A DNA stretch of 64,000 nt from Bacteroidota bacterium (GTDB lineage: Bacteria > Bacteroidota > Bacteroidia > B-17B0 > Aurantibacillaceae): positions 171,403-235,402 of the forward strand of contig JAZKGE010000027.1 of the NCBI GenBank assembly GCA_040386075.1, in the 5' to 3' direction. This document shows positions 42,892-55,875 of this stretch, piece after piece. Position 1 is the stretch's first letter, and each line of letters opens with the position of its first letter. The notes beneath the pieces were generated by a model, which saw only the letters and a list, made by a program, of their open reading frames with translations, had not been told where the DNA came from and made no database searches. The position numbers and the translations under genes are program-made.

Positions 42892-43746
42892 ATGATGCAA
42901 ACAAAAGAAGATTGGGATTTGATCATTAGACCCCGAAGCAAATGGTTTCAACTAGACTTACATGCCATTTGGAAATATCGCGACTTACTGATGTTATTAG
43001 TAAAACGTGATTTTGTTGCGGTATATAAGCAAACTATACTAGGACCGTTGTGGTTTTTTATTCAGCCGGTACTTACCGCCTTGACATTTACATTTATTTT
43101 TGGACGGGTGGCACAATTAAGTACAGAGAAAATGCCGCCTATGGCATTTTATTTGGCGGGCATCACGTTATGGACTTATTTTTCAGATTGTTTCATAAAA
43201 ACTTCCAATACGTTTATTGCCAATGCCGGAGTATTTGGAAAAGTATATTTTCCAAGACTAATTATTCCTTTATCTATATTGGTATCCAATTTAATGAAGC
43301 TTGGCATTCAATTTTTGATCTTTCTTTGTGTATGGATGTATTATTACAATACGACCGATAAAATACATCCGCAATGGCAATATATGTGGGTATTGCCGAT
43401 ACTGATTATTATGATGGCTGGTTTAGGTTTTGGTTTTGGCGTTTTAATTTCTTCATTAACCACTAAGTATCGGGACTTTACTTTTTTAATTGGATTTGGA
43501 GTGCAGTTATTAATGTACGGAAGCTCTATTGTTCTCCCAATTTCTACGATGTCGCCTAAGGTGCAATTTTTAATGAAGTTAAATCCATTAACATCGGTTA
43601 TCGAAGGCTTTAAATTTATTTTTTTAGGCTCTGGTTTTTTTGAATTTAATTGGTTGTTATATTGCTTTGGTTTTATGATAGTGCTTGTTGCCCTATCGGT
43701 TATAATATTTAATAAAGTAGAAAAATCCTTTATGGATACCGTTTAA
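42892..43746 (+). CDS. wzm: ABC-2-type polysaccharide/O-antigen export permease
   Basis: 284 aa with 6 TM. RDLLMLLVKRDFVAVYKQTILGPLWFFIQP is the typical ABC-2 N-terminal signature. Confidence 0.8.
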   Translation: MMQTKEDWDLIIRPRSKWFQLDLHAIWKYRDLLMLLVKRDFVAVYKQTILGPLWFFIQPVLTALTFTFIFGRVAQLSTEKMPPMAFYLAGITLWTYFSDCFIKTSNTFIANAGVFGKVYFPRLIIPLSILVSNLMKLGIQFLIFLCVWMYYYNTTDKIHPQWQYMWVLPILIIMMAGLGFGFGVLISSLTTKYRDFTFLIGFGVQLLMYGSSIVLPISTMSPKVQFLMKLNPLTSVIEGFKFIFLGSGFFEFNWLLYCFGFMIVLVALSVIIFNKVEKSFMDTV

Positions 43747-43748
43747 TC

Positions 43749-45044
43749 ATGAGTAATACAGTTATAAAAGTAGAGGGACTTGGCAAACAGTATCGCTTAG
43801 GAAAAGTTGGTGCTGCTACACTGTCATCTGATTTGAATAGATGGATAGCCAAAGTGAGAGGCAAGGAAGATCCTAATTTAAAAATTGGCGAAGTAAATGA
43901 TAGAACCAAAGTTAGCACCAGTAATTTGGTGTGGGCTTTAAAAGACATTAATTTTGAAGTAAAGCAAGGTGATGTGCTTGGTATTATCGGTAAAAATGGT
44001 GCTGGAAAATCAACGTTATTAAAAATCTTATCAAGAGTTACTGCTCCAACAATCGGCGACATTAAAGTGAAAGGTCGTATAGCCAGCTTACTGGAAGTAG
44101 GAACAGGATTTCATCCGGAGTTAAGTGGGAGGGAGAACATTTATTTAAATGGTGCTATCCTTGGAATGACCAAACAGGAAATCAAAAATAAATTCGATGA
44201 GATAGTAGATTTTAGCGGTGTGGAACGTTATATTGATACTCCGGTTAAACGTTATTCATCAGGAATGTACGTGCGATTGGCATTTGCCGTAGCAGCTCAT
44301 CTGGAGCCAGAGATTCTGATCGTAGATGAAGTATTGGCTGTAGGTGATGCTGAGTTTCAAAAAAAGTGCCTGGGTAAAATGAAAGATGTAAGCGGCCAGG
44401 GACGTACGGTTTTATTTGTAAGCCATAATATGGCGGCAGTAAAAGGATTGTGTACAACAGGAATTGTTTTAGAACAGGGTACTATCAAGTTTAATGGAAC
44501 TAGTGAGGGAGCAATAGATTTTTACAGCCGTTCGGCATATAATTTATCTGAAATACCTTTGGAAGAAAGGAAAGACAGAAAAGGAAATGGTAAACTCAGA
44601 ATAAAGGATATCATATACGTTAATAACCTTGGTACAAGAGTGGGTGATTTGACCTCCGGCGAGTATTACAAAATACAATTTCAGTTTGAACGTTACCAGC
44701 AGATAGACTTAAAGCAATTAACGTTTGTATTGCAATTTAAAAATGAAAGCGATGAGATCGTAACTACCATAGCAACGGACGAGCAGGGAACAGTATTTAA
44801 CACCATCGGAAACACAGGCTGTTTTGAGATTGAAATTCCTAGACTTAATTTTAGAGAGGGTAGGTATCTTATAAATTTTATGATCAGCGAAAAGCTTTCT
44901 TTTAACACTCCACATGTTACCATTGATTATTTAGCAGATGCAGCCACTATGAATGTTATCAGGGGCGATTACTGGAATTCGGGAATATTAAACAGGCCTA
45001 AAGGTTTTATTCAGGAATCTTCAATTAAAATAATAGATCTTTAG
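43749..45044 (+). CDS. wzt: polysaccharide ABC exporter ATP-binding protein with C-terminal Wzt-type glycan-binding extension
   Basis: Walker A GIIGKNGAGKSTLLK, signature YSSGM, Walker B ILIVDEVLAVGD, H-loop FVSHN. About 180 extra C-terminal residues, beta-rich. Confidence 0.9.
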   Translation: MSNTVIKVEGLGKQYRLGKVGAATLSSDLNRWIAKVRGKEDPNLKIGEVNDRTKVSTSNLVWALKDINFEVKQGDVLGIIGKNGAGKSTLLKILSRVTAPTIGDIKVKGRIASLLEVGTGFHPELSGRENIYLNGAILGMTKQEIKNKFDEIVDFSGVERYIDTPVKRYSSGMYVRLAFAVAAHLEPEILIVDEVLAVGDAEFQKKCLGKMKDVSGQGRTVLFVSHNMAAVKGLCTTGIVLEQGTIKFNGTSEGAIDFYSRSAYNLSEIPLEERKDRKGNGKLRIKDIIYVNNLGTRVGDLTSGEYYKIQFQFERYQQIDLKQLTFVLQFKNESDEIVTTIATDEQGTVFNTIGNTGCFEIEIPRLNFREGRYLINFMISEKLSFNTPHVTIDYLADAATMNVIRGDYWNSGILNRPKGFIQESSIKIIDL

Positions 45045-45056
45045 AACTAATATCTC

Positions 45057-46871
45057 ATGCTGGTTATTAATTTGAGTTATAATGCAAAGGATTTTTTAGA
45101 ATATAAAAAAGAGTGTGCAAATTCAGATTCGTTAGTATTGGATATAACGGGCGCTCTGTCAAATGAGGTAATTAAAGGCTCTATAGATATTGGAACATTA
45201 CAAGAAAATTATACTATATTTCAACAGGCAATTACCGATATGATTGATGCTATCGGTAAAGCAAGTCTATTACAGTTAAATAACAATGAACAGGTAAGAG
45301 ATTTAAACTTGAATGGTTTAAACCTTTTTTGGCAAACCACCATCTCCGAAAAATACCCTACACACTCATTTTTGATTAATTTATTTTATCTGAAAATAAT
45401 TTTAAAAGAAAAGCTTGAATCCATTAATTTTAAAAGTGTATACATTATACTTCCTTCAATTCACGAAACAGTATATATCAAATCTATCACTAAGTTCTTC
45501 CAACAAAATTATCAAATAGAGCAGTCAGGTTTTAATATTGACTTTAAATCTACTGAAAGCAACGGATCACTTTTTAAAAAGATAAAATCTACTATTATAG
45601 AGACGTTATTTTTTAAAAAGAACATTGAGTCTTTTAAAGTTTCAAAGAAAAATTTTCAGTTAAGAAACTATGCGGTTATTCCCGTTCACTCTCCTTCATG
45701 GAAACAAGCTGAAAATAGAGACAGGGTTCTTGGATTTATTGTTGATGGATCACAGGGTGCAAAAGGAACTTATCTTCCCTACTTTAGCGACTTGTTTGCA
45801 ACCGTAAAATGGAATGTGAAATGGGATTTGGATTATATTCATTCTTTTCCAACTAAGTTTCAATTAGCTAAACATTACTTTTCTAAGTTCAATATTTATA
45901 AAAAAATAAGAAAGATCAGGGATTTGAATGTTACCGATATAAATTTCGTTGATGGAAATGTTATTTATTCTGAACTGAAAATGGTCTTATCTAAAAATTA
46001 TTATTTTGTAAATTTTCTGTGGATGAAGAATTTTTTTTCTTCTATGTCCAGTCCGTCAAATATTTTTTACTATTGTGAATTTTATAAACAGCGGGGAAGA
46101 GTTATTTCTCAAGCAGTTAATAGATGCAATAATCCAAAAGTTAAATCGTATGGCTTTCAACATGGTATAATTTATAAAGGGCATACAATTTATAATCTTA
46201 CTAGAACGGAAATGGAATGCACAAAGGCATTTAATGGGTTACCAAAACCACAGCATTTTATCTTGTGGGGCAAGTATTTTAAAGACATATTAAATACACA
46301 CAACGCATTTGCTGATAGCGAATTATTAGTGGCAGGTAATCCAAATTATTTGGGTGCATTTAAAAAACATACCCATAGAAAACATAAAAATGAAGTTCCT
46401 ACGTTTTTATGGTGCACCACTTTAGAAGTTTTAGCTAAAAAGGAATTAGATATTATACAGCCATTTCTTAATGGATTAAATTCATATAAATTACTCATTC
46501 GTTGTCATCCCGGACACCAAATTCAAAATCATGTTTTAGGTTTATTTAATGAAGAAAGCATTAAAAATGTTAGTATCTGTGATAAAAAGGATGTATTTGA
46601 TGCTATTTGTACTATTGACTATGTATTTGCTGCAGTAGCATCCACTATTTTTATGGATGCCTTGATGCTAAACAAAATTGTATTTCAATTACAAACGGAT
46701 ATATTTTATAATGCACTAATACCCTCACCTAATGCCTATATTGTTAATTCATCAAATGAATTGAATGAACTTTATACCAAACTAAAACTACAGGACACAG
46801 AAAAAAATTTTGTGAAAGAGCAAACTATTTTGCATTTGAACGAATCGACCTGGGAAGAAATTTTAAATTAA
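45057..46871 (+). CDS. hypothetical protein; C-terminal half weakly resembles GT-B TagF/capsule-polymerase-type enzymes
   Basis: 604 aa. EVPTFLWCTTLEV ... YKLLIRCHPGH recalls the ILYAPTWR ... K-x-HP pattern of CDP-glycerol glycerophosphotransferase/capsule synthesis families. Eye-level similarity only. Confidence 0.45.
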   Translation: MLVINLSYNAKDFLEYKKECANSDSLVLDITGALSNEVIKGSIDIGTLQENYTIFQQAITDMIDAIGKASLLQLNNNEQVRDLNLNGLNLFWQTTISEKYPTHSFLINLFYLKIILKEKLESINFKSVYIILPSIHETVYIKSITKFFQQNYQIEQSGFNIDFKSTESNGSLFKKIKSTIIETLFFKKNIESFKVSKKNFQLRNYAVIPVHSPSWKQAENRDRVLGFIVDGSQGAKGTYLPYFSDLFATVKWNVKWDLDYIHSFPTKFQLAKHYFSKFNIYKKIRKIRDLNVTDINFVDGNVIYSELKMVLSKNYYFVNFLWMKNFFSSMSSPSNIFYYCEFYKQRGRVISQAVNRCNNPKVKSYGFQHGIIYKGHTIYNLTRTEMECTKAFNGLPKPQHFILWGKYFKDILNTHNAFADSELLVAGNPNYLGAFKKHTHRKHKNEVPTFLWCTTLEVLAKKELDIIQPFLNGLNSYKLLIRCHPGHQIQNHVLGLFNEESIKNVSICDKKDVFDAICTIDYVFAAVASTIFMDALMLNKIVFQLQTDIFYNALIPSPNAYIVNSSNELNELYTKLKLQDTEKNFVKEQTILHLNESTWEEILN

Positions 46872-46922: not shown

Positions 46923-47939
46923 ATGTTAGATTTAAACGGAAAATCTCTTTTAATAACAGGAGGAACTGGTTCTTTAGGAAAAGAACTTACTAAAACTATT
47001 CTGCAAAACTGGCCGGATATTAAACGACTTGTAATATTTTCAAGAGATGAACAGAAACAGTTTCAAATGGATCAGGAATTCCCTTCCTCTAAGCATAAGG
47101 CCATTCGATACTTCATTGGGGATGTAAGGGATCTTGAACGCTTAAAGCGAGCTTTCATTGGTATTGATTACGTTATTCACGCAGCTGCCATGAAACATGT
47201 GCATATTGCAGAATATAATCCGGATGAATGTGTTAAAACCAATATTGGCGGAGCAGAAAACGTTATTAAAGCGGCACTGGATTCAAATATTACAAAAGTG
47301 GTGGCCCTGTCAACAGATAAGGCATGTGCGCCAATTAATTTGTACGGTGCAACAAAATTAACTTCCGATAAATTATTTATTGCTGCTAATAATATCAAAG
47401 GTCATAAAGATATCAAGTTTTCAGTTGTTAGATATGGTAATGTAATGGGTTCAAACGGTTCAGTAATTCCTTTTTTCCTGAACAAAAGAAAAGAAGGTGT
47501 GTTGCCAATAACAGATCCCAATATGACACGTTTTAATATCTCGTTGCAGGGTGGTGTTGACATGGTGCTTCATGCATTAGATGCAGCCTGGGGTGGAGAA
47601 TTATTTGTGCCAAAGATACCTTCTTATAAAATTATGGATGTTGCAAAAGCAATAGGACCAAATTGCGAGCATAAAATAAACGGTATTCGACCAGGAGAAA
47701 AAATTCATGAGGAAATGATAACCAGCTCCGACTCATTTACAACTTATGATCTGGGGAAATATTATGTGATCCTTCCTCAGGTTACTAATTGGAAACTGGA
47801 TGAGTACATGAAACACTTTAACGCTAAACTGGTTCCTCAAGGATTTCATTACACTTCAGAAAACAATAGTGAATGGGAAACTGTTGAAGGATTAAGAAAA
47901 TTGATTGTTGAACACGTTGACCCAACTTTTAAACCATAA
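46923..47939 (+). CDS. pseB: UDP-N-acetylglucosamine 4,6-dehydratase (inverting)
   Basis: LNGKSLLITGGTGSLGKELTKTIL...VIFSRDEQKQFQM, YGATKLTSDKLF and RYGNVMGSNGSVIPFF match PseB/FlaA1. Followed by pseC. Confidence 0.85.
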   Translation: MLDLNGKSLLITGGTGSLGKELTKTILQNWPDIKRLVIFSRDEQKQFQMDQEFPSSKHKAIRYFIGDVRDLERLKRAFIGIDYVIHAAAMKHVHIAEYNPDECVKTNIGGAENVIKAALDSNITKVVALSTDKACAPINLYGATKLTSDKLFIAANNIKGHKDIKFSVVRYGNVMGSNGSVIPFFLNKRKEGVLPITDPNMTRFNISLQGGVDMVLHALDAAWGGELFVPKIPSYKIMDVAKAIGPNCEHKINGIRPGEKIHEEMITSSDSFTTYDLGKYYVILPQVTNWKLDEYMKHFNAKLVPQGFHYTSENNSEWETVEGLRKLIVEHVDPTFKP

Positions 47940-47943
47940 TTAA

Positions 47944-49092
47944 ATGATTCCATACGGTAGACAAAATATTACTGAGGATGATATTAATGCTGTTATAACA
48001 GCATTGAAATCAGATTTCCTGACACAAGGCCCTGAGATAGCGGTGTTTGAAAAAGCATTTGCTGAGTATATAGGATGTAAGTATGCTGTGGCTGTATCAA
48101 ATGGAACGGCTGCGTTACATTTATGCACCATGGCGTTAGGAGTTGATGAGAATTCAAGAGTTATCACAAGCCCGATTACCTTCGCTGCTTCTGCTAATTG
48201 CGTTCGTTATTGCAATGGGGAAGTTTATTTTGCTGATATTGATCCTGAGACTTATTTACTGGACATCACTAAAGTGCGGGCATTATTGGAAAAGCAGCCT
48301 AAAGGCTACTTTCAGGGAATAATTCCCGTAGATTTTGCAGGTAACGCGGTTAATCTTGAAGAATTCAGAAAGCTGGCAGATGAATTTGGTTGTTGGATCA
48401 TTGAAGATGCTTGTCACGCACCGGGTGGCTATTTTATAGATAGTAAAGGAACCCAGCAGTTTTGTGGAAACAGCCGGTTTGCCGATCTGGCTATTTTTTC
48501 TTTTCATCCGGTTAAACATATAGCGTGCGGCGAAGGAGGAATGGTAACTACTAATGATGAAGCTTTATATCATAAACTGATAAAGCTTCGTACTCATGGC
48601 ATCACTAAGGATCCTGAGTTGATGCACAAAAATGATGGAGGTTGGTATTATGAAATGCAAGAGTTAGGGTATAATTATCGAATTACAGATTTTCAGGCTG
48701 CCTTGGGAACCTCTCAATTAAAGAGAGCAGACGAAGGTTTAAAAAGAAGAAGAGAGATAGCTCGCATTTACGAAGATGCTTTTAAATCAAATAAAAATAT
48801 AAAGGCACAATCCGGAGTTGTTGATGGACACGCCTATCACTTATATATTATTGAAGTAGAAAAACGTAAAGACTTGTATGACTTCTTAAGATCAAAAGAT
48901 GTTTTTTGTCAGGTTCATTATATTCCTGTTCATACCTTACCTTATTATGAAAGCTTAGGATGGAAACAGGGAGATTTTAAAAATGCAGAACAATACTACA
49001 AAGGTTGTTTAAGTTTGCCTATGTATCCTACCTTAACCAATGAACAACAAATGTTTGTGATCAACCTCATTAACTCGTTTTTAGGTGAATAA
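47944..49092 (+). CDS. pseC: UDP-4-amino-4,6-dideoxy-N-acetyl-beta-L-altrosamine transaminase
   Basis: MIPYGRQNITEDDINAVITALKSDFLTQGP and SFHPVKHIACGEGG (PLP Lys). Sits between pseB and pseF. Confidence 0.85.
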   Translation: MIPYGRQNITEDDINAVITALKSDFLTQGPEIAVFEKAFAEYIGCKYAVAVSNGTAALHLCTMALGVDENSRVITSPITFAASANCVRYCNGEVYFADIDPETYLLDITKVRALLEKQPKGYFQGIIPVDFAGNAVNLEEFRKLADEFGCWIIEDACHAPGGYFIDSKGTQQFCGNSRFADLAIFSFHPVKHIACGEGGMVTTNDEALYHKLIKLRTHGITKDPELMHKNDGGWYYEMQELGYNYRITDFQAALGTSQLKRADEGLKRRREIARIYEDAFKSNKNIKAQSGVVDGHAYHLYIIEVEKRKDLYDFLRSKDVFCQVHYIPVHTLPYYESLGWKQGDFKNAEQYYKGCLSLPMYPTLTNEQQMFVINLINSFLGE

Positions 49093-49777
49093 CGTTGCAA
49101 TTATAACAGCTCGTGGCGGCAGTAAACGCATACCAAAAAAAAATATAAAAGATTTTTTGGGAAAACCTATTATTGCCTATTCAATTGAAACAGCCTTAAA
49201 TTCAGGTTTGTTTGATTATGTCATGGTGTCTACTGACGACAATGAAATTGCAGAAGTAGCAAAAAAATACGGCGCTCAAGTTCCCTTTGTAAGAAGCAAA
49301 CAAACATCAGATGATTTTACAGGTACTGCCGATGTTGTGATAGAAGTATTACATGATTTGAAAAAAATAGGAAAAGAATTTATAAACGCCTGTTGCATTT
49401 ATCCAACGGCGCCTTTTATATCTAAACAAACATTAAATGAATCGTATCAATTACTCATTGGTAAAAAATTTGATTCTGTGTTTCCAGTTTGTTCTTTTTC
49501 ATACCCAATTCAAAGGGCCTTAGAAATCAATGATTCAAAAACAAAAATGGTTTGGGGAGAAAATTTGAATAAACGTTCGCAGGATTTACCAGCAAGATAT
49601 CACGATGCTGGACAATTTTATTGGATGAATGTGGAATCTTTTTTAATTGAGAAAAAATTATTCACTAACAATACAGGCTCTGTCATCTTAGATGAATTAC
49701 AAGTACAAGACATAGATAACGAAACCGATTGGAAATTGGCGGAATTAAAATTCAATTTATTATTTTCTAGTAATTAA
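49085..49777 (+). CDS. pseF: pseudaminic acid cytidylyltransferase
   Basis: VAIITARGGSKRIPKKNIKDFLGKPIIAYSI and RSQDLPARYHDAGQFYW are CMP-NulO synthetase motifs. GTG start overlaps the pseC stop. Confidence 0.8.
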   Translation: MNNVAIITARGGSKRIPKKNIKDFLGKPIIAYSIETALNSGLFDYVMVSTDDNEIAEVAKKYGAQVPFVRSKQTSDDFTGTADVVIEVLHDLKKIGKEFINACCIYPTAPFISKQTLNESYQLLIGKKFDSVFPVCSFSYPIQRALEINDSKTKMVWGENLNKRSQDLPARYHDAGQFYWMNVESFLIEKKLFTNNTGSVILDELQVQDIDNETDWKLAELKFNLLFSSN

Positions 49778-49778
49778 A

Positions 49779-51782
49779 ATGCGCAATTATAAGTGTTTAC
49801 AAACTAATACATTTTCTAATGGAAATTATAGCTTAGTTCCAATTAGAGATGAAGATAAGTACGATATCTTAAAGTGGCGCAATGAACAAATAGATATTTG
49901 TAGGCAAACAACACCTTTAACCAACGAGCAACAGGAGTTATATTTTAGCACAGTCGTTACGCAGTTATTCGAAGAGGAAAAACCAAATCAAATACTTTGG
50001 TCTTTTTTATTAGATGGCAAGTTTATAGGATATGGAGGGTTGGTACATATCGATTGGGATAAAAAATGCGGTGAAATTTCTTTTTTGACAGAAACCTCTC
50101 GGAGTAAAATAAAAGATTTATTTATTTCTGAATGGACAATTTATTTATCACTTGTAAAAGAAATAGCTAAGGTTCATTTGAACTTTAATTACATCTTTAC
50201 ATACGCCTATGACATTAGACCTAATTTATATGTAGCTCTTGAAAATTCAGGATTTAATGAAACGGAACGTTTTAAAGATTTTATCGAAATTAATAGTGAA
50301 TTAAAAGATGTTGTAATACATACATTTTATTTTACTGAGCCGGTAATGAGGTTTGCAAAATTATCTGATGTCGATCTTTATTATAAATGGGTTAATAATC
50401 CTGAAGTAAGAAAAAATTCTTTCAATCAGGATATAATTGCGTATGAAGGTCATGTTAAATGGTTTAATGCTAAAGTAAATTCAGAAAATTGTTTTTTTTA
50501 TCTTTTTTTTAATAAGGATTTAAGCCCTATTGGTCAGGTTAGAATTGATAAAAATGAAGAAGTAATTGTTGATGTTTCGATTGACGAAAATCAAAGAGGC
50601 AGATCGTACTCTTCAAAAGTATTAAAATTGGCTTGCGAAGATTTTTTTAAAAAATTCCCAAACGAAACGATTTCTTCTTATATCAAAAAAACAAATATTC
50701 CTTCATACAAAGCTTTTTTAAATGCAGGCTTTTTTGAAGTAACTAATCATATTGATTCTAGTGTTTTTAAACTCGAGAAGATGAAGAATAAGAGACAGGT
50801 TATTTATTCATTTGAAAATAAAAATGATTTATTTGATGTTATTAAATTGAATAATACAGATGAGAAAGATGTTTCAGAGTTTTTTGAACTTTTTTATCAT
50901 TGCTTTGGGAAGCGCTCATATCTTGATACTGATTGGTATAATTGGTTTCACGTGAATAATCCCTACGGCTTATGTAATAATTATATTCTTGTAGACAGAG
51001 AAAAAAATAAATTTATTGGTGCTTATGCTTTAGCTAAATCTGTTATAAGTATTAATGGTAAATCTTCGAATGCCAAAATTGGCGTAAACGGAATGATTCA
51101 TCAGGACTACAGAAACAGAGGGCTATACTCTAAAATAATTGAAATTGCAGTTCAGCAGGATGATAAAGAAGTTTTAGCTATTGCCTATCCCCACGGAAAA
51201 AATAAGGGTTCTGCTTCAGGTCATGCAAAAGCAGGATGGAAATTATTAAAAGAAATTGCATTTTATGCAATCACAAGTCTAAATGATTTTTCGATAGATG
51301 AGAAAGTTAAAAAGATAAGCTCTTTTACTGGAATAAATGGCATTGATGAATTAGTGAAATCATGTAACTATTCAAGTTACTTAGTGCGAACCAAAGAATG
51401 GCTTAATTGGCGTTTTTTTTTAAGACCTCACAAAAAATATGAAGTCATCGGACATTTTGATTCAGTAAATCATATACAGGGTTATTTAGTTTTAGGGTAT
51501 TATAAGAATGATGTTGTCAATAGATGTCAAATATTGGATTATAGTGCTGTAAATTTTGAAGTATTGCTTTCTTTATTAAATAAAGCTAAAGAGATTGCTT
51601 TTACTAATCAATGTTCAGTGCTTGATGTATGGCTTGATGAGTATTCAAAAGAATTAAAGTTCTTTATAGAACATGCATTTTTAAAGACAGACGAACATTA
51701 TTCATTATTCTATTTTAATAACACAAATAATAAGTTAGACATCAATATAAAAACAATTTTATCCGATTTAGATGCAGTTTAA
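49779..51782 (+). CDS. triple acyltransferase fusion: two PseH-like GNAT modules + one larger GNAT/FemAB-like module
   Basis: Module 1 LVPIRDEDKYDILKWRNEQIDI. Module 2 FAKLSDVDLYYKWVNNPEVRKNSF...QRGRSYSSKVL. Module 3 GVNGMIHQDYRNRGLYSKIIEIAV. The KWRN/KWVN motif mirrors Campylobacter PseH. Confidence 0.65.
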   Translation: MRNYKCLQTNTFSNGNYSLVPIRDEDKYDILKWRNEQIDICRQTTPLTNEQQELYFSTVVTQLFEEEKPNQILWSFLLDGKFIGYGGLVHIDWDKKCGEISFLTETSRSKIKDLFISEWTIYLSLVKEIAKVHLNFNYIFTYAYDIRPNLYVALENSGFNETERFKDFIEINSELKDVVIHTFYFTEPVMRFAKLSDVDLYYKWVNNPEVRKNSFNQDIIAYEGHVKWFNAKVNSENCFFYLFFNKDLSPIGQVRIDKNEEVIVDVSIDENQRGRSYSSKVLKLACEDFFKKFPNETISSYIKKTNIPSYKAFLNAGFFEVTNHIDSSVFKLEKMKNKRQVIYSFENKNDLFDVIKLNNTDEKDVSEFFELFYHCFGKRSYLDTDWYNWFHVNNPYGLCNNYILVDREKNKFIGAYALAKSVISINGKSSNAKIGVNGMIHQDYRNRGLYSKIIEIAVQQDDKEVLAIAYPHGKNKGSASGHAKAGWKLLKEIAFYAITSLNDFSIDEKVKKISSFTGINGIDELVKSCNYSSYLVRTKEWLNWRFFLRPHKKYEVIGHFDSVNHIQGYLVLGYYKNDVVNRCQILDYSAVNFEVLLSLLNKAKEIAFTNQCSVLDVWLDEYSKELKFFIEHAFLKTDEHYSLFYFNNTNNKLDINIKTILSDLDAV

Positions 51783-52476
51783 TAATAAAAAAATCATGAT
51801 TGTTGTAGCACATCCAGATGATGAATTATTAGGATTAGGGGCTACAATGAATAAAATAATTTCAGAAAGTAATGTAATAACACACTTAGTTATATTAGGT
51901 GAAGGTATTACTTCACGATCTGATAATCGAGACAAATCTTTATGGGAAAAAGAACTTGAGATACACCGTAATAATATTTATGCCGCACAAAAATGCATTG
52001 GGTATCATTCCGTAAGTATTCATCAAATAGCAGATAATAGATTTGATAGTGTAAATCTTCTTGATATTATTAAAATAGTTGAAAAAGAAAAAGAAAAATT
52101 TCAACCAGATGTTATTTTTACACATCATGGTGGTGATTTAAATATTGATCATCAACGTACTTTTGAAGCAGTAATTACATGCACTAGACCTATGGAAAAT
52201 GAAAAGGTAAAAACAATCATTACTTTTGAAACCCCATCGGGTACAGAATGGCGAGCATCAACAGATCCTAAACATTTTATTCCTAATTTATTTTTTGAAG
52301 TGTCGGAAGATAATTTAGACGCTAAAATTAAGGGCATGGAAAATTACGAATTTGAAAAAAGAAAGTATCCTCATCCCAGATCTCCAGAAGCATTAAAAAT
52401 ACAAGCACAGCGTTGGGGGATTTCTGTGGGAAAACCTTTTGCAGAGGCATTCGTTTTAGTTAGACAAATTAATTAA
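51772..52476 (+). CDS. PIG-L/LmbE-family N-acetyl-sugar deacetylase
   Basis: IMIVVAHPDDELLGLGATM and HHGGDLNIDH are the family zinc-binding signatures. Confidence 0.8.
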   Translation: MQFNNKKIMIVVAHPDDELLGLGATMNKIISESNVITHLVILGEGITSRSDNRDKSLWEKELEIHRNNIYAAQKCIGYHSVSIHQIADNRFDSVNLLDIIKIVEKEKEKFQPDVIFTHHGGDLNIDHQRTFEAVITCTRPMENEKVKTIITFETPSGTEWRASTDPKHFIPNLFFEVSEDNLDAKIKGMENYEFEKRKYPHPRSPEALKIQAQRWGISVGKPFAEAFVLVRQIN

Positions 52477-52483
52477 TTTAAAG

Positions 52484-53524
52484 ATGAATATTAAAATAGG
52501 TGATTTTTTAATTGGCTCAAATCAAAAGCCATTTATTATAGCAGAAATGAGTGGTAATCATAATCAATCATTAGATCGAGCATTTGAGTTAGTAGATGCA
52601 GCTGCAGCAGCGGGGGCACATGCTTTAAAACTGCAAACGTATACAGCCGATACGATTACCATGAAAGGTGCTTACACTATTACAGATCCTAATTCTCTGT
52701 GGTATGGTAAAGAATTGCATGATTTGTATAAAGAAGCCTACACACCTTGGGAATGGCATAAACCTATTTTTGACAGGGCAATTGAAAAAGGAATGATTGC
52801 ATTCAGTTCGCCATTTGATGAAACGGCTGTTGATTTTTTGGAAAGTCTAAATGTTCCTGCATATAAAATTGCTTCTTTCGAAAATACACATTTACCATTA
52901 ATTCGTAAAGTGGCAAAAACCGGTAAACCAGTAATTATTTCAACTGGTGTTTCTTCCATAGCTGATGTAGATGAGGCTGTTAAAACATTGAAATCTGAGG
53001 GCTGCGAAAATTTTGTTTTATTAAAATGCACAAGCACATATCCTGCTACTCTCGAAAACACAAACTTAAACACGATTCCTCATTTAGCCCAATTACATAA
53101 TTGCATTGTTGGTTTATCAGACCATACCATGGGAATTGGAGCATCCGTTGCGGCCGTGGCATTAGGTGCAAGAGTAATTGAAAAACATTTCACCTTGCGC
53201 AGAGCAGATGGAGGTGTCGATAGTGCGTTTTCGATGGAGCCAGAGGAGTTAAAAGCCTTAGTGATTGAAACTGAACGTGCCTTTTTATCACTCGGTAAAA
53301 TTCAATATGGCGTGCAAAAAATAGAACAGAATAGCTTGTTTTTTAAACGCTCTATTTATGTTTCAAAAGATATAAAAGCTGGAGAATTATTTAGTGAAGC
53401 TAATCTTAAAATTATTCGCCCTGGTGATGGTTTAGCCCCAAAGTTTTGGGATGATATTATTGGCAAACCATGTCATTACAATTTAAAGGCAGGTAGTCCA
53501 TTAAATTTTAAGAATCTTATTTAA
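52484..53524 (+). CDS. pseI: pseudaminic acid synthase (NeuB family with SAF domain)
   Basis: KPFIIAEMSGNHNQSLDRAFELVDAAAAAGAHALKLQTY, GLSDHTMG, VIEKHFTL. C-terminal SAF-like KDIKAGELFSEANLKIIRPGDG. Confidence 0.85.
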   Translation: MNIKIGDFLIGSNQKPFIIAEMSGNHNQSLDRAFELVDAAAAAGAHALKLQTYTADTITMKGAYTITDPNSLWYGKELHDLYKEAYTPWEWHKPIFDRAIEKGMIAFSSPFDETAVDFLESLNVPAYKIASFENTHLPLIRKVAKTGKPVIISTGVSSIADVDEAVKTLKSEGCENFVLLKCTSTYPATLENTNLNTIPHLAQLHNCIVGLSDHTMGIGASVAAVALGARVIEKHFTLRRADGGVDSAFSMEPEELKALVIETERAFLSLGKIQYGVQKIEQNSLFFKRSIYVSKDIKAGELFSEANLKIIRPGDGLAPKFWDDIIGKPCHYNLKAGSPLNFKNLI

Positions 53525-53527
53525 AAG

Positions 53528-54700
53528 ATGCGAAAATCGATTTTAGTTATTTGCGGCACCGATCTTCAAAAAGCGCCAAGGTTTTTAACTCAGTTAGAAG
53601 CGCTTTATAAAGATTATGATATTACTGCAGCAGGCTATTCAGGTGATTTAAATTCTGAAAAGTATAAATTTATTTCGCTCATAAAAAGGCAAAGAGCTGA
53701 TAATTTTACCTTTCATCTCAAATATCCTTTATTACTTCGAAAGTTTTTTTCAATGTTATTGCGTGTTATTTATTCCAGGACAATTGACCCCGAAAAAAGC
53801 AGAATAGAAAATAATTTCAATTTATTGAAAAAATATAATTATGATCTGGTTATCTCCCACCATTTAAATGATTTACCGCTTGGCGTAAAACTTGCAAAGC
53901 ATAAGAAAACAAAATTGATCTTCAACGCACACGAATATTATCCTTTGCAATTTGAAGATAGGGATGACTGGATGCAAAATACCCAGCCATACAACATCAA
54001 AATAGCAAACACGTATTTTAAAGATGTGGATGCGTGTTTTTGTGTAGGATCTATTATTGCTCAAAAATATAAGGACGAATTTAATTTGGATAGCGACGTT
54101 ATCACGAATTCAAAACCTTTTATAGAGATAGCACCAGCAAAACTTAAAGCTGACGAAAAAATAAAGTTGGTACATCATGGCGCGGCAAACAGATCCAGAA
54201 AAATTGAAGAGATGATGGAACTAATGACGCATCTTGGCGAGAATTATACATTGGATCTGGTGTTGGTGCCAGGTGAGGAAAAGTATATTACCGAACTTAA
54301 GCAAAAAGCTTTAGCGTATAAGAATATTAATTTTCCTGAGGCAGTTCCTACAAAAGATATCTCTGCATACATCAGCAAATATGATATTGGTATTTATATT
54401 TTGCCTCCTACAAATTTTAATGGCACAAACGCACTTCCAAATAAATTTTTTGAATTTGTTCAGGCCAGACTTGCTATTGCAATCGGGCCATCTCCGGAAA
54501 TGGAATTACTGGTTAAAAAATATGATCTTGGTGTTGTATCTACTGATTTTTCATCGAAGTCGCTTGCAGATGCAATTTTGAAGATGGATGTGGAAAAGAT
54601 CATGTATTATAAAAACCAGGCTCATAAGCATGCGAAGGAATTAAGTACGGATGAAAACATGGATAAGATCAAACACATAGTTTATACTTTATTAAATTAG
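53528..54700 (+). CDS. GT-B glycosyltransferase-like protein (GT4-like C-terminal half)
   Basis: LVHHGAANRSRKIEEMM ... ALPNKFFEFVQARLAIAIGP resembles the E-x7-E region of retaining GT4 enzymes. No MurG/PseG-like G-x-G-H motif. Confidence 0.5.
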   Translation: MRKSILVICGTDLQKAPRFLTQLEALYKDYDITAAGYSGDLNSEKYKFISLIKRQRADNFTFHLKYPLLLRKFFSMLLRVIYSRTIDPEKSRIENNFNLLKKYNYDLVISHHLNDLPLGVKLAKHKKTKLIFNAHEYYPLQFEDRDDWMQNTQPYNIKIANTYFKDVDACFCVGSIIAQKYKDEFNLDSDVITNSKPFIEIAPAKLKADEKIKLVHHGAANRSRKIEEMMELMTHLGENYTLDLVLVPGEEKYITELKQKALAYKNINFPEAVPTKDISAYISKYDIGIYILPPTNFNGTNALPNKFFEFVQARLAIAIGPSPEMELLVKKYDLGVVSTDFSSKSLADAILKMDVEKIMYYKNQAHKHAKELSTDENMDKIKHIVYTLLN

Positions 54701-54714
54701 GAAGTGGTATATTG

Positions 54715-55875
54715 ATGCGTGTTGGAATTATTTTTACCGGAGTTGCAAATGAACATGTAGGGGGAGCAGAGCGTTTTTTTGCTGATTTTTATGATATATA
54801 CAATAGGCAGTCAAAAAAACAAAATGATGTTTTTTTTATAACAGATAAGAATTCATGTGATGTGTATACTAAAAAGTTAAAAAAACTTCGTTACACTAAA
54901 AATATTATACTTATACCCAATTTTAATAACCGATTTAAAAACACACTCGAATCTTTTTTTTTCCTGTTGAAACTTATTCTGAAAAGAATTGATATTATTC
55001 ATATCGGGTCTTATGGAAGGCACTATTATCATCTTTTGGATAGTATTAAATTTTTACCCATTTTTTTAAGACCAAAAATAGTGATCAATATTGTGGATTG
55101 TGAGATACCTTACGTGCTTGGTAATAGTTCAGATCCAAAGCATAGTTCTTATAAAGCCAAATATCTTCCATTATTTGATGACATTAAGATCGATGCAGTT
55201 TACTCCTGGTATAAACTGTTCAAGCAGTTCGCCGAATCGAAGGGTATTATTAAATCAAATCCATTGATAGAATCGGTTGCTACCCGTTTTTCTGACACTG
55301 CACGATTTATTTCTGCAGCAAACAAAAAAAATGAAATTATTTTTGCCGCAAGGCTTACCCATCAAAAGCAACCCTTGTTTTTTTTAAAAGCCATCCGGAT
55401 TTTAAAAGCAAATTTTTTTGAAGACATTAAAGGCTGGAAATTTTTGATATACGGAAAAGGTCCTTTAGAAAAAGATGTACAGGAATTTATTTCAAATAAC
55501 GGGCTGGAGGAGTTGATTTCCGGACATTCAAATTCTGATCTATCAAAAGTATTTTCTGAAACAAAATGTTTTGTGTCAACCCAGGATTATGAAAATTTCC
55601 CTTCTCTGTCGATGTGCGAAGCTATGGCTGCTGGTAATGCTGTAATTGCAAGAAATGTGGGTCAGACAGATTTTTTTGTAAAACATGACGTTAATGGTTA
55701 TGTTTTAGATAATGATACTCCTGAGGGCCTTGCTTATATGTTGCACAAATATATCACAAGTCCTCAAAATCATCTTCGGATGCAAAATGAAAGTGTTCGT
55801 TTAACCAAAGAGGTGCATACCGCAGATAATTTTATAAGAGATATTGATTCTTTTTGGAAAAAGGTAAACCAATAG
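54715..55875 (+). CDS. GT4-family glycosyltransferase
   Basis: ENFPSLSMCEAMAAGNAVIARNVGQTDFFVKHDVNGYV is a standard GT4 EX7E block. Start set to the ATG 3 nt inside the TTG of the track ORF. Confidence 0.8.
   Translation: MRVGIIFTGVANEHVGGAERFFADFYDIYNRQSKKQNDVFFITDKNSCDVYTKKLKKLRYTKNIILIPNFNNRFKNTLESFFFLLKLILKRIDIIHIGSYGRHYYHLLDSIKFLPIFLRPKIVINIVDCEIPYVLGNSSDPKHSSYKAKYLPLFDDIKIDAVYSWYKLFKQFAESKGIIKSNPLIESVATRFSDTARFISAANKKNEIIFAARLTHQKQPLFFLKAIRILKANFFEDIKGWKFLIYGKGPLEKDVQEFISNNGLEELISGHSNSDLSKVFSETKCFVSTQDYENFPSLSMCEAMAAGNAVIARNVGQTDFFVKHDVNGYVLDNDTPEGLAYMLHKYITSPQNHLRMQNESVRLTKEVHTADNFIRDIDSFWKKVNQ

Follow-up and report, generated by a model that had tools for sequence, protein, structure and literature searches.

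A pseudaminic acid operon without PseG in an Aurantibacillaceae bacterium, and a widespread GNAT-fold domain that may take its place

Pseudaminic acid (Pse) is a sialic-acid-like sugar of flagella, capsules, O-antigens, and S-layers, and the six-enzyme pathway that makes it is a drug target and can be used for chemoenzymatic synthesis. The window analyzed here is a stretch of 64,000 nucleotides (nt) from a Bacteroidota bacterium of the family Aurantibacillaceae (contig JAZKGE010000027.1), in which positions 46923-53524 form a close-packed plus-strand Pse operon within a larger surface-glycan locus. An original prediction made from this sequence had claimed that pseB, pseC, pseF, and pseI are all present, and all four score above the curated NCBIfam equivalog cut-offs. 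Neighboring genes overlap by 8 nt (pseC and pseF) or 11 nt (the 667-amino-acid [aa] open reading frame [ORF] and the PIG-L gene), and the remaining gaps measure 1 to 7 nt. Between pseF and pseI lie the 667-aa ORF, whose three modules are called M1, M2, and M3, and a gene for a PIG-L/LmbE-family de-N-acetylase. Our main subject is M1 and its relation to PseG, the hydrolase that removes uridine diphosphate (UDP) in the canonical pathway. The genes and modules, with the glycosyltransferase gene that follows pseI, are as follows.

46923..47939, + strand: pseB, UDP-GlcNAc 4,6-dehydratase (inverting); TIGR03589, 505 bits, cut-off 408
47944..49092, + strand: pseC, aminotransferase; TIGR03588, 476 bits, cut-off 423.5
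49085..49777, + strand: pseF, CMP-pseudaminic acid synthetase; TIGR03584, 317 bits, cut-off 206
49779..51782, + strand: 667-aa ORF, M1+M2+M3; three separate GNAT Pfam matches
49779..50342, + strand: M1, residues 1-188 of the 667-aa ORF, proposed non-orthologous PseG; PseH-like GNAT fold without acetyl-CoA motifs
50343..50792, + strand: M2, residues 189-338, predicted PseH-type N-acetyltransferase; cofactor motifs and a match to 4XPK
50793..51782, + strand: M3, residues 339-667, proposed two-lobed GNAT-type acyltransferase; PF13527 and an NMT-like model
51772..52476, + strand: PIG-L/LmbE-family de-N-acetylase; PF02585, 67.8 bits, cut-off 28.2
52484..53524, + strand: pseI, pseudaminic acid synthase; TIGR03586, 481 bits, cut-off 340
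53528..54700, + strand: GT-B (GT4-like) glycosyltransferase, not PseG; weak GT4/GT1 Pfam matches

A domain scan of 49779-51782 with hidden Markov models (HMMs) bore out the three acyltransferase-like modules that had been predicted, the separate Pfam matches being PF13420 at residues 22-177, PF13302 at 191-318, and PF13527 at 360-471. The same triple architecture (667/668 aa) is found again, 84% and 92% identical, in two metagenome assemblies of independent origin; the fusion is therefore not an assembly artifact. The deacetylase placed by the prediction between this ORF and pseI is likewise there, with its AHPDDE motif.

In order to establish whether PseG is encoded anywhere, we used the model TIGR03590, which has a curated cut-off of 153.55 bits. 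No ORF at the locus matches it, M1 and PIG-L included, and across the genome, which is 98.9% complete, the best score is 23.9 bits. This sole weak match is the MurG gene adjoining FtsW, and a PseG hidden elsewhere in the genome was rejected as an explanation. The claim that the locus has no recognizable PseG thus holds for the whole genome, and the accompanying proposal of UDP removal by a non-orthologous enzyme is upheld, PseG being truly absent. The only biochemically characterized Pse pathway of Bacteroidota, that of Tannerella forsythia, has a canonical PseG (Tanf_01235) (PMC5378307).

The AlphaFold (AF2) model of M1, computed from a 67-sequence alignment, has a predicted local distance difference test (pLDDT) value of 96.8 and displays a complete GNAT fold; it is a single GNAT domain, without the two-domain GT-B fold. 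The family assignment agrees with Pfam (PF13420, 60.8 bits, cut-off 24.3). In a Foldseek search, the best PDB match is Helicobacter pylori PseH (4RI1; E 6e-13, template modeling [TM] score 0.72-0.78, 16% identity), which ranks above SpeG and RimL-type GNATs; 480 PDB matches were obtained at E<=0.001, and 50/50 of the matches listed are GNAT-family proteins. At the sequence level, the M1 profile reaches 4RI1 with an E value of 0.27 only. M1 shares the β0-β7 topology and the WRN region with the PseH enzymes of H. pylori (4RI1, PMC4363471) and Campylobacter jejuni (4XPK). It bears no sequence similarity to PseG, which is a two-Rossmann GT-B protein of ~280-340 aa, whereas the GNAT domain of M1 has ~185 aa.

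Unlike PseH, M1 has lost the residues expected around acetyl-coenzyme A (acetyl-CoA). In motif A, where the Q/R-x-x-G-x-G/A loop binds the CoA pyrophosphate, there is no conserved Gly between T106 and F115 of M1; this stretch also carries a 2-residue indel, and the RGKGxG of M2 aligns to a gap or non-Gly residues in M1. In the profile-profile alignment, N118, S121, and F125 of M2 align to R147, L150, and L154 of M1, so that M1 has an invariant arginine, Arg147, in place of the pantetheine-binding Asn (Asn131 in PseH) and Leu at both general-acid positions. The roles of this Asn and of the general-acid Tyr/Ser on α4 are described in the PseH structure paper (PMC4363471). Twenty-four residues, mostly polar, are invariant in the 67 M1 sequences: Y4, R23, D26, R34, N35, Q37, R42, Q43, Q52, Y55, F56, P69, Q71, L73, Y85, G86, G87, L88, V89, H90, I91, E99, S101, and R147. 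Placed on the secondary structure of the AF2 model, they map mainly to α1, the α1-α2 loop, α2, and strands β3-β5, the region that forms the acceptor cleft in GNATs; R34 and Y55/F56, judged by sequence position, would be close to where PseH has Arg30 and Phe52, the residues that stack on uracil. No NCBIfam model covers M1, and its homologues are annotated in the source databases as RimJ/RimL or generic GNAT acetyltransferases; pathway predictors would therefore score M1 operons as incomplete.

The second module has what the first lacks. M2 carries canonical cofactor motifs (RGKGxG and N..AS...F.KAGF), and its profile matches C. jejuni PseH (4XPK) with an E value of 3.7e-10. Its score against the PseH model TIGR03585 is 39.9 bits, under the cut-off of 93.1, and M2 copies in PseG-type loci of Bacteroidia likewise stay below it (for instance, 40.7 bits for P0018). 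The same GNAT is fused to a true PseG in 17 of the 40 PseG-type loci described below. Judged by its sequence, M2, not M1, is the PseH-type enzyme of the operon. The best solved-structure match of the M2 profile is PDB 3EO4 (Methanocaldococcus jannaschii MJ1062; E 1e-15), which was deposited as uncharacterized and is probably an archaeal PseH-type acetyltransferase.

M1 is widespread in Bacteroidota. The M1 profile finds at least 539 loci among species-representative genomes; of the best 80 of these, 79 belong to Bacteroidota, and the remaining one is on a 2-kb contig that was binned as Akkermansia. An exhaustive HMM search yields at least 308 clusters at 50% identity (E<=1e-30). About 170 other genomes entered the comparison. 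In 48 M1-bearing genomes, PseI is above its cut-off in 48/48 and PseG in 0/48, the best match to the PseG model being 27 bits. We then drew an even sample of 401 genomes of the same class, of which 79 are PseI-positive; the other 78 were classified as follows, a PseG-like gene being counted at E<=1e-8.

PseG-like gene only: 55/78 PseI-positive genomes
M1 only: 21/78 PseI-positive genomes
Both M1 and a PseG-like gene: 1/78 (G256)
Neither M1 nor a PseG-like gene: 1/78 (G088, in which pseI is the first gene on its contig)

The PseG-like gene of G256 scores 89 bits, which is below the cut-off, and it lies on another contig in an unrelated Wzt/sulfotransferase/GT2/WbqC cluster; this genome was rejected as a true case of M1 with PseG because the gene is a sub-cut-off paralogue. 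M1 occurs in 24 of the 401 genomes and all 24 are PseI-positive, allowing for G435, whose PseI is truncated at a contig end and which was therefore set aside as a case of M1 without PseI. M1 and PseG are thus mutually exclusive. Both types of genome are found within each of five genera (g4, g16, g26, g82, and g131). These figures suggest that M1 does the PseG step in ~30% of Pse-making Bacteroidia.

The paralogue in G256 (L147:6619-7590) sits in a cluster of Wzt, sulfotransferase, PhyH, GT2, methyltransferase, and WbqC genes without pseB or pseI, and PseG-like GT-B proteins therefore have roles beyond Pse synthesis.

A very improbable explanation of the operon is that M1 and M2 are both N-acyltransferases, which place different acyl groups on N-5 and N-7, and that the PseG step is done by the GT-B ORF at 53528-54700 or by PIG-L. 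M1 does have a PseH-like WRN motif and a Pfam GNAT match, and the GT-B ORF belongs to the same broad fold class as PseG; the original prediction had counted M1 as a second PseH-like module and the GT-B ORF as the only candidate substitute. Neither claim survived. M1 lacks the loop that binds the cofactor as well as the pantetheine Asn and the general acid. The GT-B ORF gives no TIGR03590 signal even at E<=10 (it matches the VpsD family at 38 bits) and is not conserved, since a phmmer search of 80 PseG-less loci found a full-length homologue in L042 alone plus a fragment in L028. As for PIG-L, 24 of the 78 Pse genomes sampled have an orthologue adjoining pseI, 22 of these genomes being PseG-type and 2 M1-type; PIG-L also stands beside true PseG in the individual loci L013 and L105 and occurs in only ~9 of 80 M1 loci. 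Because PIG-L is found mostly with PseG and rarely in M1 loci, it was rejected as the PseG substitute and is unrelated to the missing PseG.

The operons themselves place M1 in the position of PseG. In L013, the genes run PseG (178.5 bits), an M2+M3 protein without M1, a PIG-L that is 87% identical to that of the window, and PseI; in L105, they run PseG (184 bits), a formyltransferase, M3, PIG-L, and PseI. The corresponding orders are M1+M2, M3, PIG-L, and PseI in L106 and M1+M2+M3, PIG-L, and PseI in the window. From these matching cassettes it follows that M1 and PseG share one slot and that PIG-L goes with either. The commonest M1 operon is PseB-PseC-PseF-(M1+M2)-PseI with nothing between, an exact order found in 9 loci, and in this minimal operon M1 is therefore the only unassigned part and UDP removal the only unassigned step. 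Across M1 loci, M1 is constant and the acyltransferase varies: M2 is fused to it or, in some loci, separate; six loci have a formyltransferase of ~290 aa and no M2; other partners are a different GNAT of ~180 aa, sometimes with a MaoC hydratase, and an ATP-grasp enzyme. Fusions of M1 with true PseF and with methyltransferases also occur, and very often M1 is a free-standing protein of ~190 aa. For a mirror comparison, 40 PseG-type loci were fetched from the genome sample. PseG and M2 are fused in the 17 already mentioned (P0018 is such a fusion, with PseG at 203 bits), and the rest include loci with PseG and M2 as separate proteins and loci that pair PseG with a formyltransferase or an ATP-grasp enzyme. 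M1 and PseG, different in fold and size, thus have in common an operon slot, their fusion partners (PseH-type GNAT, formyltransferase, and ATP-grasp enzyme), and a complementary distribution, and would by this reasoning catalyze the same step.

A maximum-likelihood tree of PseI from 86 loci requires at least 13 switches between M1 and PseG, and for at least 4 of these the branches that demand the switch are strongly supported. The PseI of the window groups, with 98% support, in a clade that comprises 9 M1-type loci and a single PseG-type locus. Since PseI does not segregate by operon type, both kinds of operon presumably feed it the same sugar. In phylogeny, position, and fusion, M1 and PseG are interchangeable. 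The shared slot, the shared partners, and the at least 13 swaps make M1 the best candidate for a non-orthologous PseG. The original prediction had left room for a hidden PseG-like segment in the 667-aa ORF; this idea stands insofar as M1 appears to be the functional equivalent, but the fold is that of a GNAT and is not MurG-like.

It is unlikely that M1 is a catalytically inert pseudo-GNAT whose only role is to scaffold or regulate the acyltransferase it accompanies, comparable to the N-terminal domain of the mycothiol synthase MshD, with UDP being lost through an unlinked housekeeping hydrolase (DUF218/YdcF, Nudix, or the like) or spontaneously. The missing acetyl-CoA motifs and the frequent fusion to M2 are what one would expect of such a domain, and the genome does have DUF218 genes, four in number. 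However, an inert M1 leaves unexplained why it is present exactly where PseG is absent and why 24 mostly polar residues are invariant, and it sits poorly with the many M1 proteins that stand free or are fused to PseF, formyltransferase, ATP-grasp, or methyltransferase partners. DUF218 was rejected as a PseG substitute: its genes are ~61 kb from pseB and thus unlinked to the operon, they are absent from the minimal M1 operons, and 9 of 14 control genomes have them as well.

It is quite unlikely that M1 releases UDP by a route other than hydrolysis (for instance, elimination to a glycal, substrate-assisted formation of an oxazoline, phosphorolysis, or transfer to another acceptor), in which case it would replace PseG without being a strict hydrolase. 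The comparative evidence given above fits this chemistry equally and does not discriminate between the two, and there is a precedent in the elimination-addition used by NeuC/LegG-type enzymes. Nevertheless, the lack of divergence of PseI between the two types of locus speaks for one and the same free-sugar product, and the minimal operons have no extra enzyme for a two-step route.

We now turn to the remaining genes between pseF and pseI, PIG-L and M3. The PIG-L motifs AHPDDE and HHGGDLNIDH are invariant among orthologues and include H14, D16, D17, H118, H119, D126, and H127. The window protein shares its Pfam membership and metal-binding motifs with MshB, BshB, and diacetylchitobiose deacetylase, and diacetylchitobiose deacetylases are its nearest solved relatives; its subfamily is tied to pseI and reaches merely 28.8 bits on the BshB1 model. 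To our knowledge, every characterized PIG-L/LmbE enzyme takes the 2-N-acetyl group off a GlcNAc-type sugar. In M1-type and PseG-type loci alike, PIG-L seldom comes without another N-modifying enzyme. This partner can be a short formyltransferase (~220-230 aa); in six loci (the window, L012, L013, L103/L124, L105, and L106), it is M3, fused or free, directly 5' of PIG-L and pseI. M3 belongs to a rare family without a significant sequence match to any solved structure. Its first lobe matches PF13527 (33 bits, cut-off 25), and M3 bears an Eis-like cofactor motif, YRNRGLYS; its AF2 model (pLDDT 69) is weak in the C-terminal half, and the top Foldseek matches are N-myristoyltransferases (E 4e-12, TM ~0.5), whose tandem-GNAT fold M3 may share, with the C-terminal lobe poorly modeled. 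In the teicoplanin pathway, a deacetylase of this kind and an N-acyltransferase exchange an acetyl for another acyl group. The pairing of PIG-L with a second enzyme supports an exchange of the acetyl for a different acyl substituent, the simplest site being the amine destined to be N-5 of Pse. The deacetylation and reacylation envisaged by the original prediction are thus backed by the near-constant company of PIG-L with M3 or the short formyltransferase.

In L038 (12256-13732), the partner of PIG-L is an S-adenosylmethionine (SAM)-dependent methyltransferase, not an acyl- or formyltransferase, which hints at N-methylation of the freed amine there.

Taken together, the operon would convert UDP-GlcNAc into a cytidine monophosphate (CMP)-activated Pse derivative for the surrounding glycan, which is predicted to be exported by an ATP-binding cassette (ABC) transporter. 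PseB and PseC would produce UDP-4-amino-4,6-dideoxy-β-L-AltNAc, and M2 would N-acetylate this PseC product. M1, in our proposal, is a paralogue of the PseH fold that has kept the conserved sugar-nucleotide cleft and lost the acetyl-CoA site; it would take the PseH product and release UDP in place of the GT-B hydrolase PseG, its arginine cluster stabilizing the leaving group and E99, D26, D145, or H90 activating water. PseI would condense the free sugar with phosphoenolpyruvate, and PseF would then activate the product. PIG-L and M3 would form an optional add-on cassette, in which PIG-L removes the GlcNAc-derived N-acetyl group (N-2 of the hexose, which becomes N-5 of Pse) and M3 adds another acyl group at the freed amine, giving a Pse5R7Ac-type sugar. 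In short, the operon would follow a known pathway, except that the PseG step falls to a GNAT-fold domain that is widespread yet unannotated, and it has in addition a fused-on, optional deacetylase/acyltransferase cassette.

As a whole, M1 as a UDP-releasing stand-in for PseG together with an optional PIG-L/M3 cassette is the best explanation of the data, and we give it a probability of about 0.65. Its parts differ in strength. The data show what the genes are, that PseG is absent, and that M1 has a GNAT fold but not the acetyl-CoA motifs. The comparisons give good support to M1 and PseG being functionally equivalent; the hydrolase chemistry of M1, the site and stage of PIG-L/M3 action, and the identity of R are inferred. 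That M1 is a new family, the first GNAT-fold UDP-sugar (glycosyl-diphosphate) hydrolase, evolved from PseH through loss of the acetyl-CoA site and gain of water activation on the PseH product and repeatedly displacing PseG across Bacteroidota, is a bolder statement, for and against which the odds are about even. Several points weigh against our interpretation: we know of no GNAT-fold glycosidic or UDP-sugar hydrolase; the clustering of the invariant residues in the acceptor cleft is deduced from sequence position alone; M1 may bind CoA without the glycines; a housekeeping hydrolase, such as one of the four DUF218 proteins, may act in trans; the M3 model is of moderate quality; and many of the compared genomes are metagenome-assembled. 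Overall, the observation behind the original prediction was confirmed, and its interpretation is supported in part.

A full-text literature search found no report of a GNAT-type PseG substitute and none of PIG-L/LmbE enzymes in Pse biosynthesis, and a search on pseG-less Flavobacterium clusters returned nothing relevant. If M1 is a hydrolase, the fifth enzyme of the pathway is a different one in ~30% of Pse-positive Bacteroidia; M1 would then be a clear example of enzyme recruitment from the step just before its own, and its activity would be a new reaction type for the GNAT superfamily. The enzymes that modify the N-acyl groups of nonulosonic acids are largely unknown, and the origin of the variants is an open problem (PMC5378307). 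In ~31% of the sampled Pse loci, PIG-L is accompanied by M3 or a formyltransferase, and this combination offers a genetic explanation, open to testing, of how Pse comes to vary in its N-5 acyl group.

Further gene sets accompany pse genes in other loci. In L057 (10560-11499) and in L069 (Roseivirga), M1 is followed by the different GNAT (~179 aa) and a MaoC-type hydratase, a pair that suggests a hydroxyacyl substituent (e.g., 3-hydroxybutyryl) replacing acetyl at N-7. A three-gene cassette for an aldo-keto reductase (~290 aa), a CTP_transf_3 cytidylyltransferase (~255 aa), and a class-III aminotransferase (~435 aa) lies between pseC and M1 or PseG in L057 (7043-9991), L069, L014, L028, L036, L038, L050, L052, L061, L063, L105, and L106, its Pfam identities being scanned in L057 and precomputed in L014 and L106, with the other loci assigned by matching ORF sizes; it sometimes stands in place of the TIGR03584-type pseF. 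The pseC-pseF interval of L106 (943-3531) encodes a protein of ~385-397 aa without a Pfam match, a HisH-like glutamine amidotransferase, and a HisF-like cyclase, identities that come from the precomputed Pfam matches of L106 only. Same-sized ORFs (~383/201/248 aa) occur in L026, L027, L047, L049, L072, L094, L058, and L087. This set probably forms an acetimidoyl (Am) group on the sugar.

Homopolymer tracts are present in three genes of the window: a T9 tract at 51413-51421 in the M3 part of the fusion ORF, where a slip would truncate M3, and further A9/T9 tracts at 49135-49143 in pseF and at 54954-54962 in the glycosyltransferase gene 54712-55875. Such tracts are not enriched, 3 being seen versus ~22 expected by chance.

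Upstream of the operon lie wzm (42892-43746) and wzt (43749-45044), and downstream are glycosyltransferase and heptose genes. Directly 3' of pseI, several loci encode a 435-452-aa protein without a Pfam or NCBIfam match (L012:4272-5588, L013:13189-14514, and L106:10728-12035; also L023, L028, L030, and L031), which is a candidate pseudaminyltransferase; in the window, the corresponding position is held by the GT4-like ORF 53528-54700. The interval between wzt and pseB holds one more gene:

45057..46871, + strand: 604-aa protein; weak TIGR04396 match, 22 bits; context of the operon

The TIGR04396 match ("surface carbohydrate biosynthesis protein") is confined to the C-terminal part, and a homologue sits 5' of pseB in L026. 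This protein may be a Pse transferase, a polymerase, or a chain-building enzyme.

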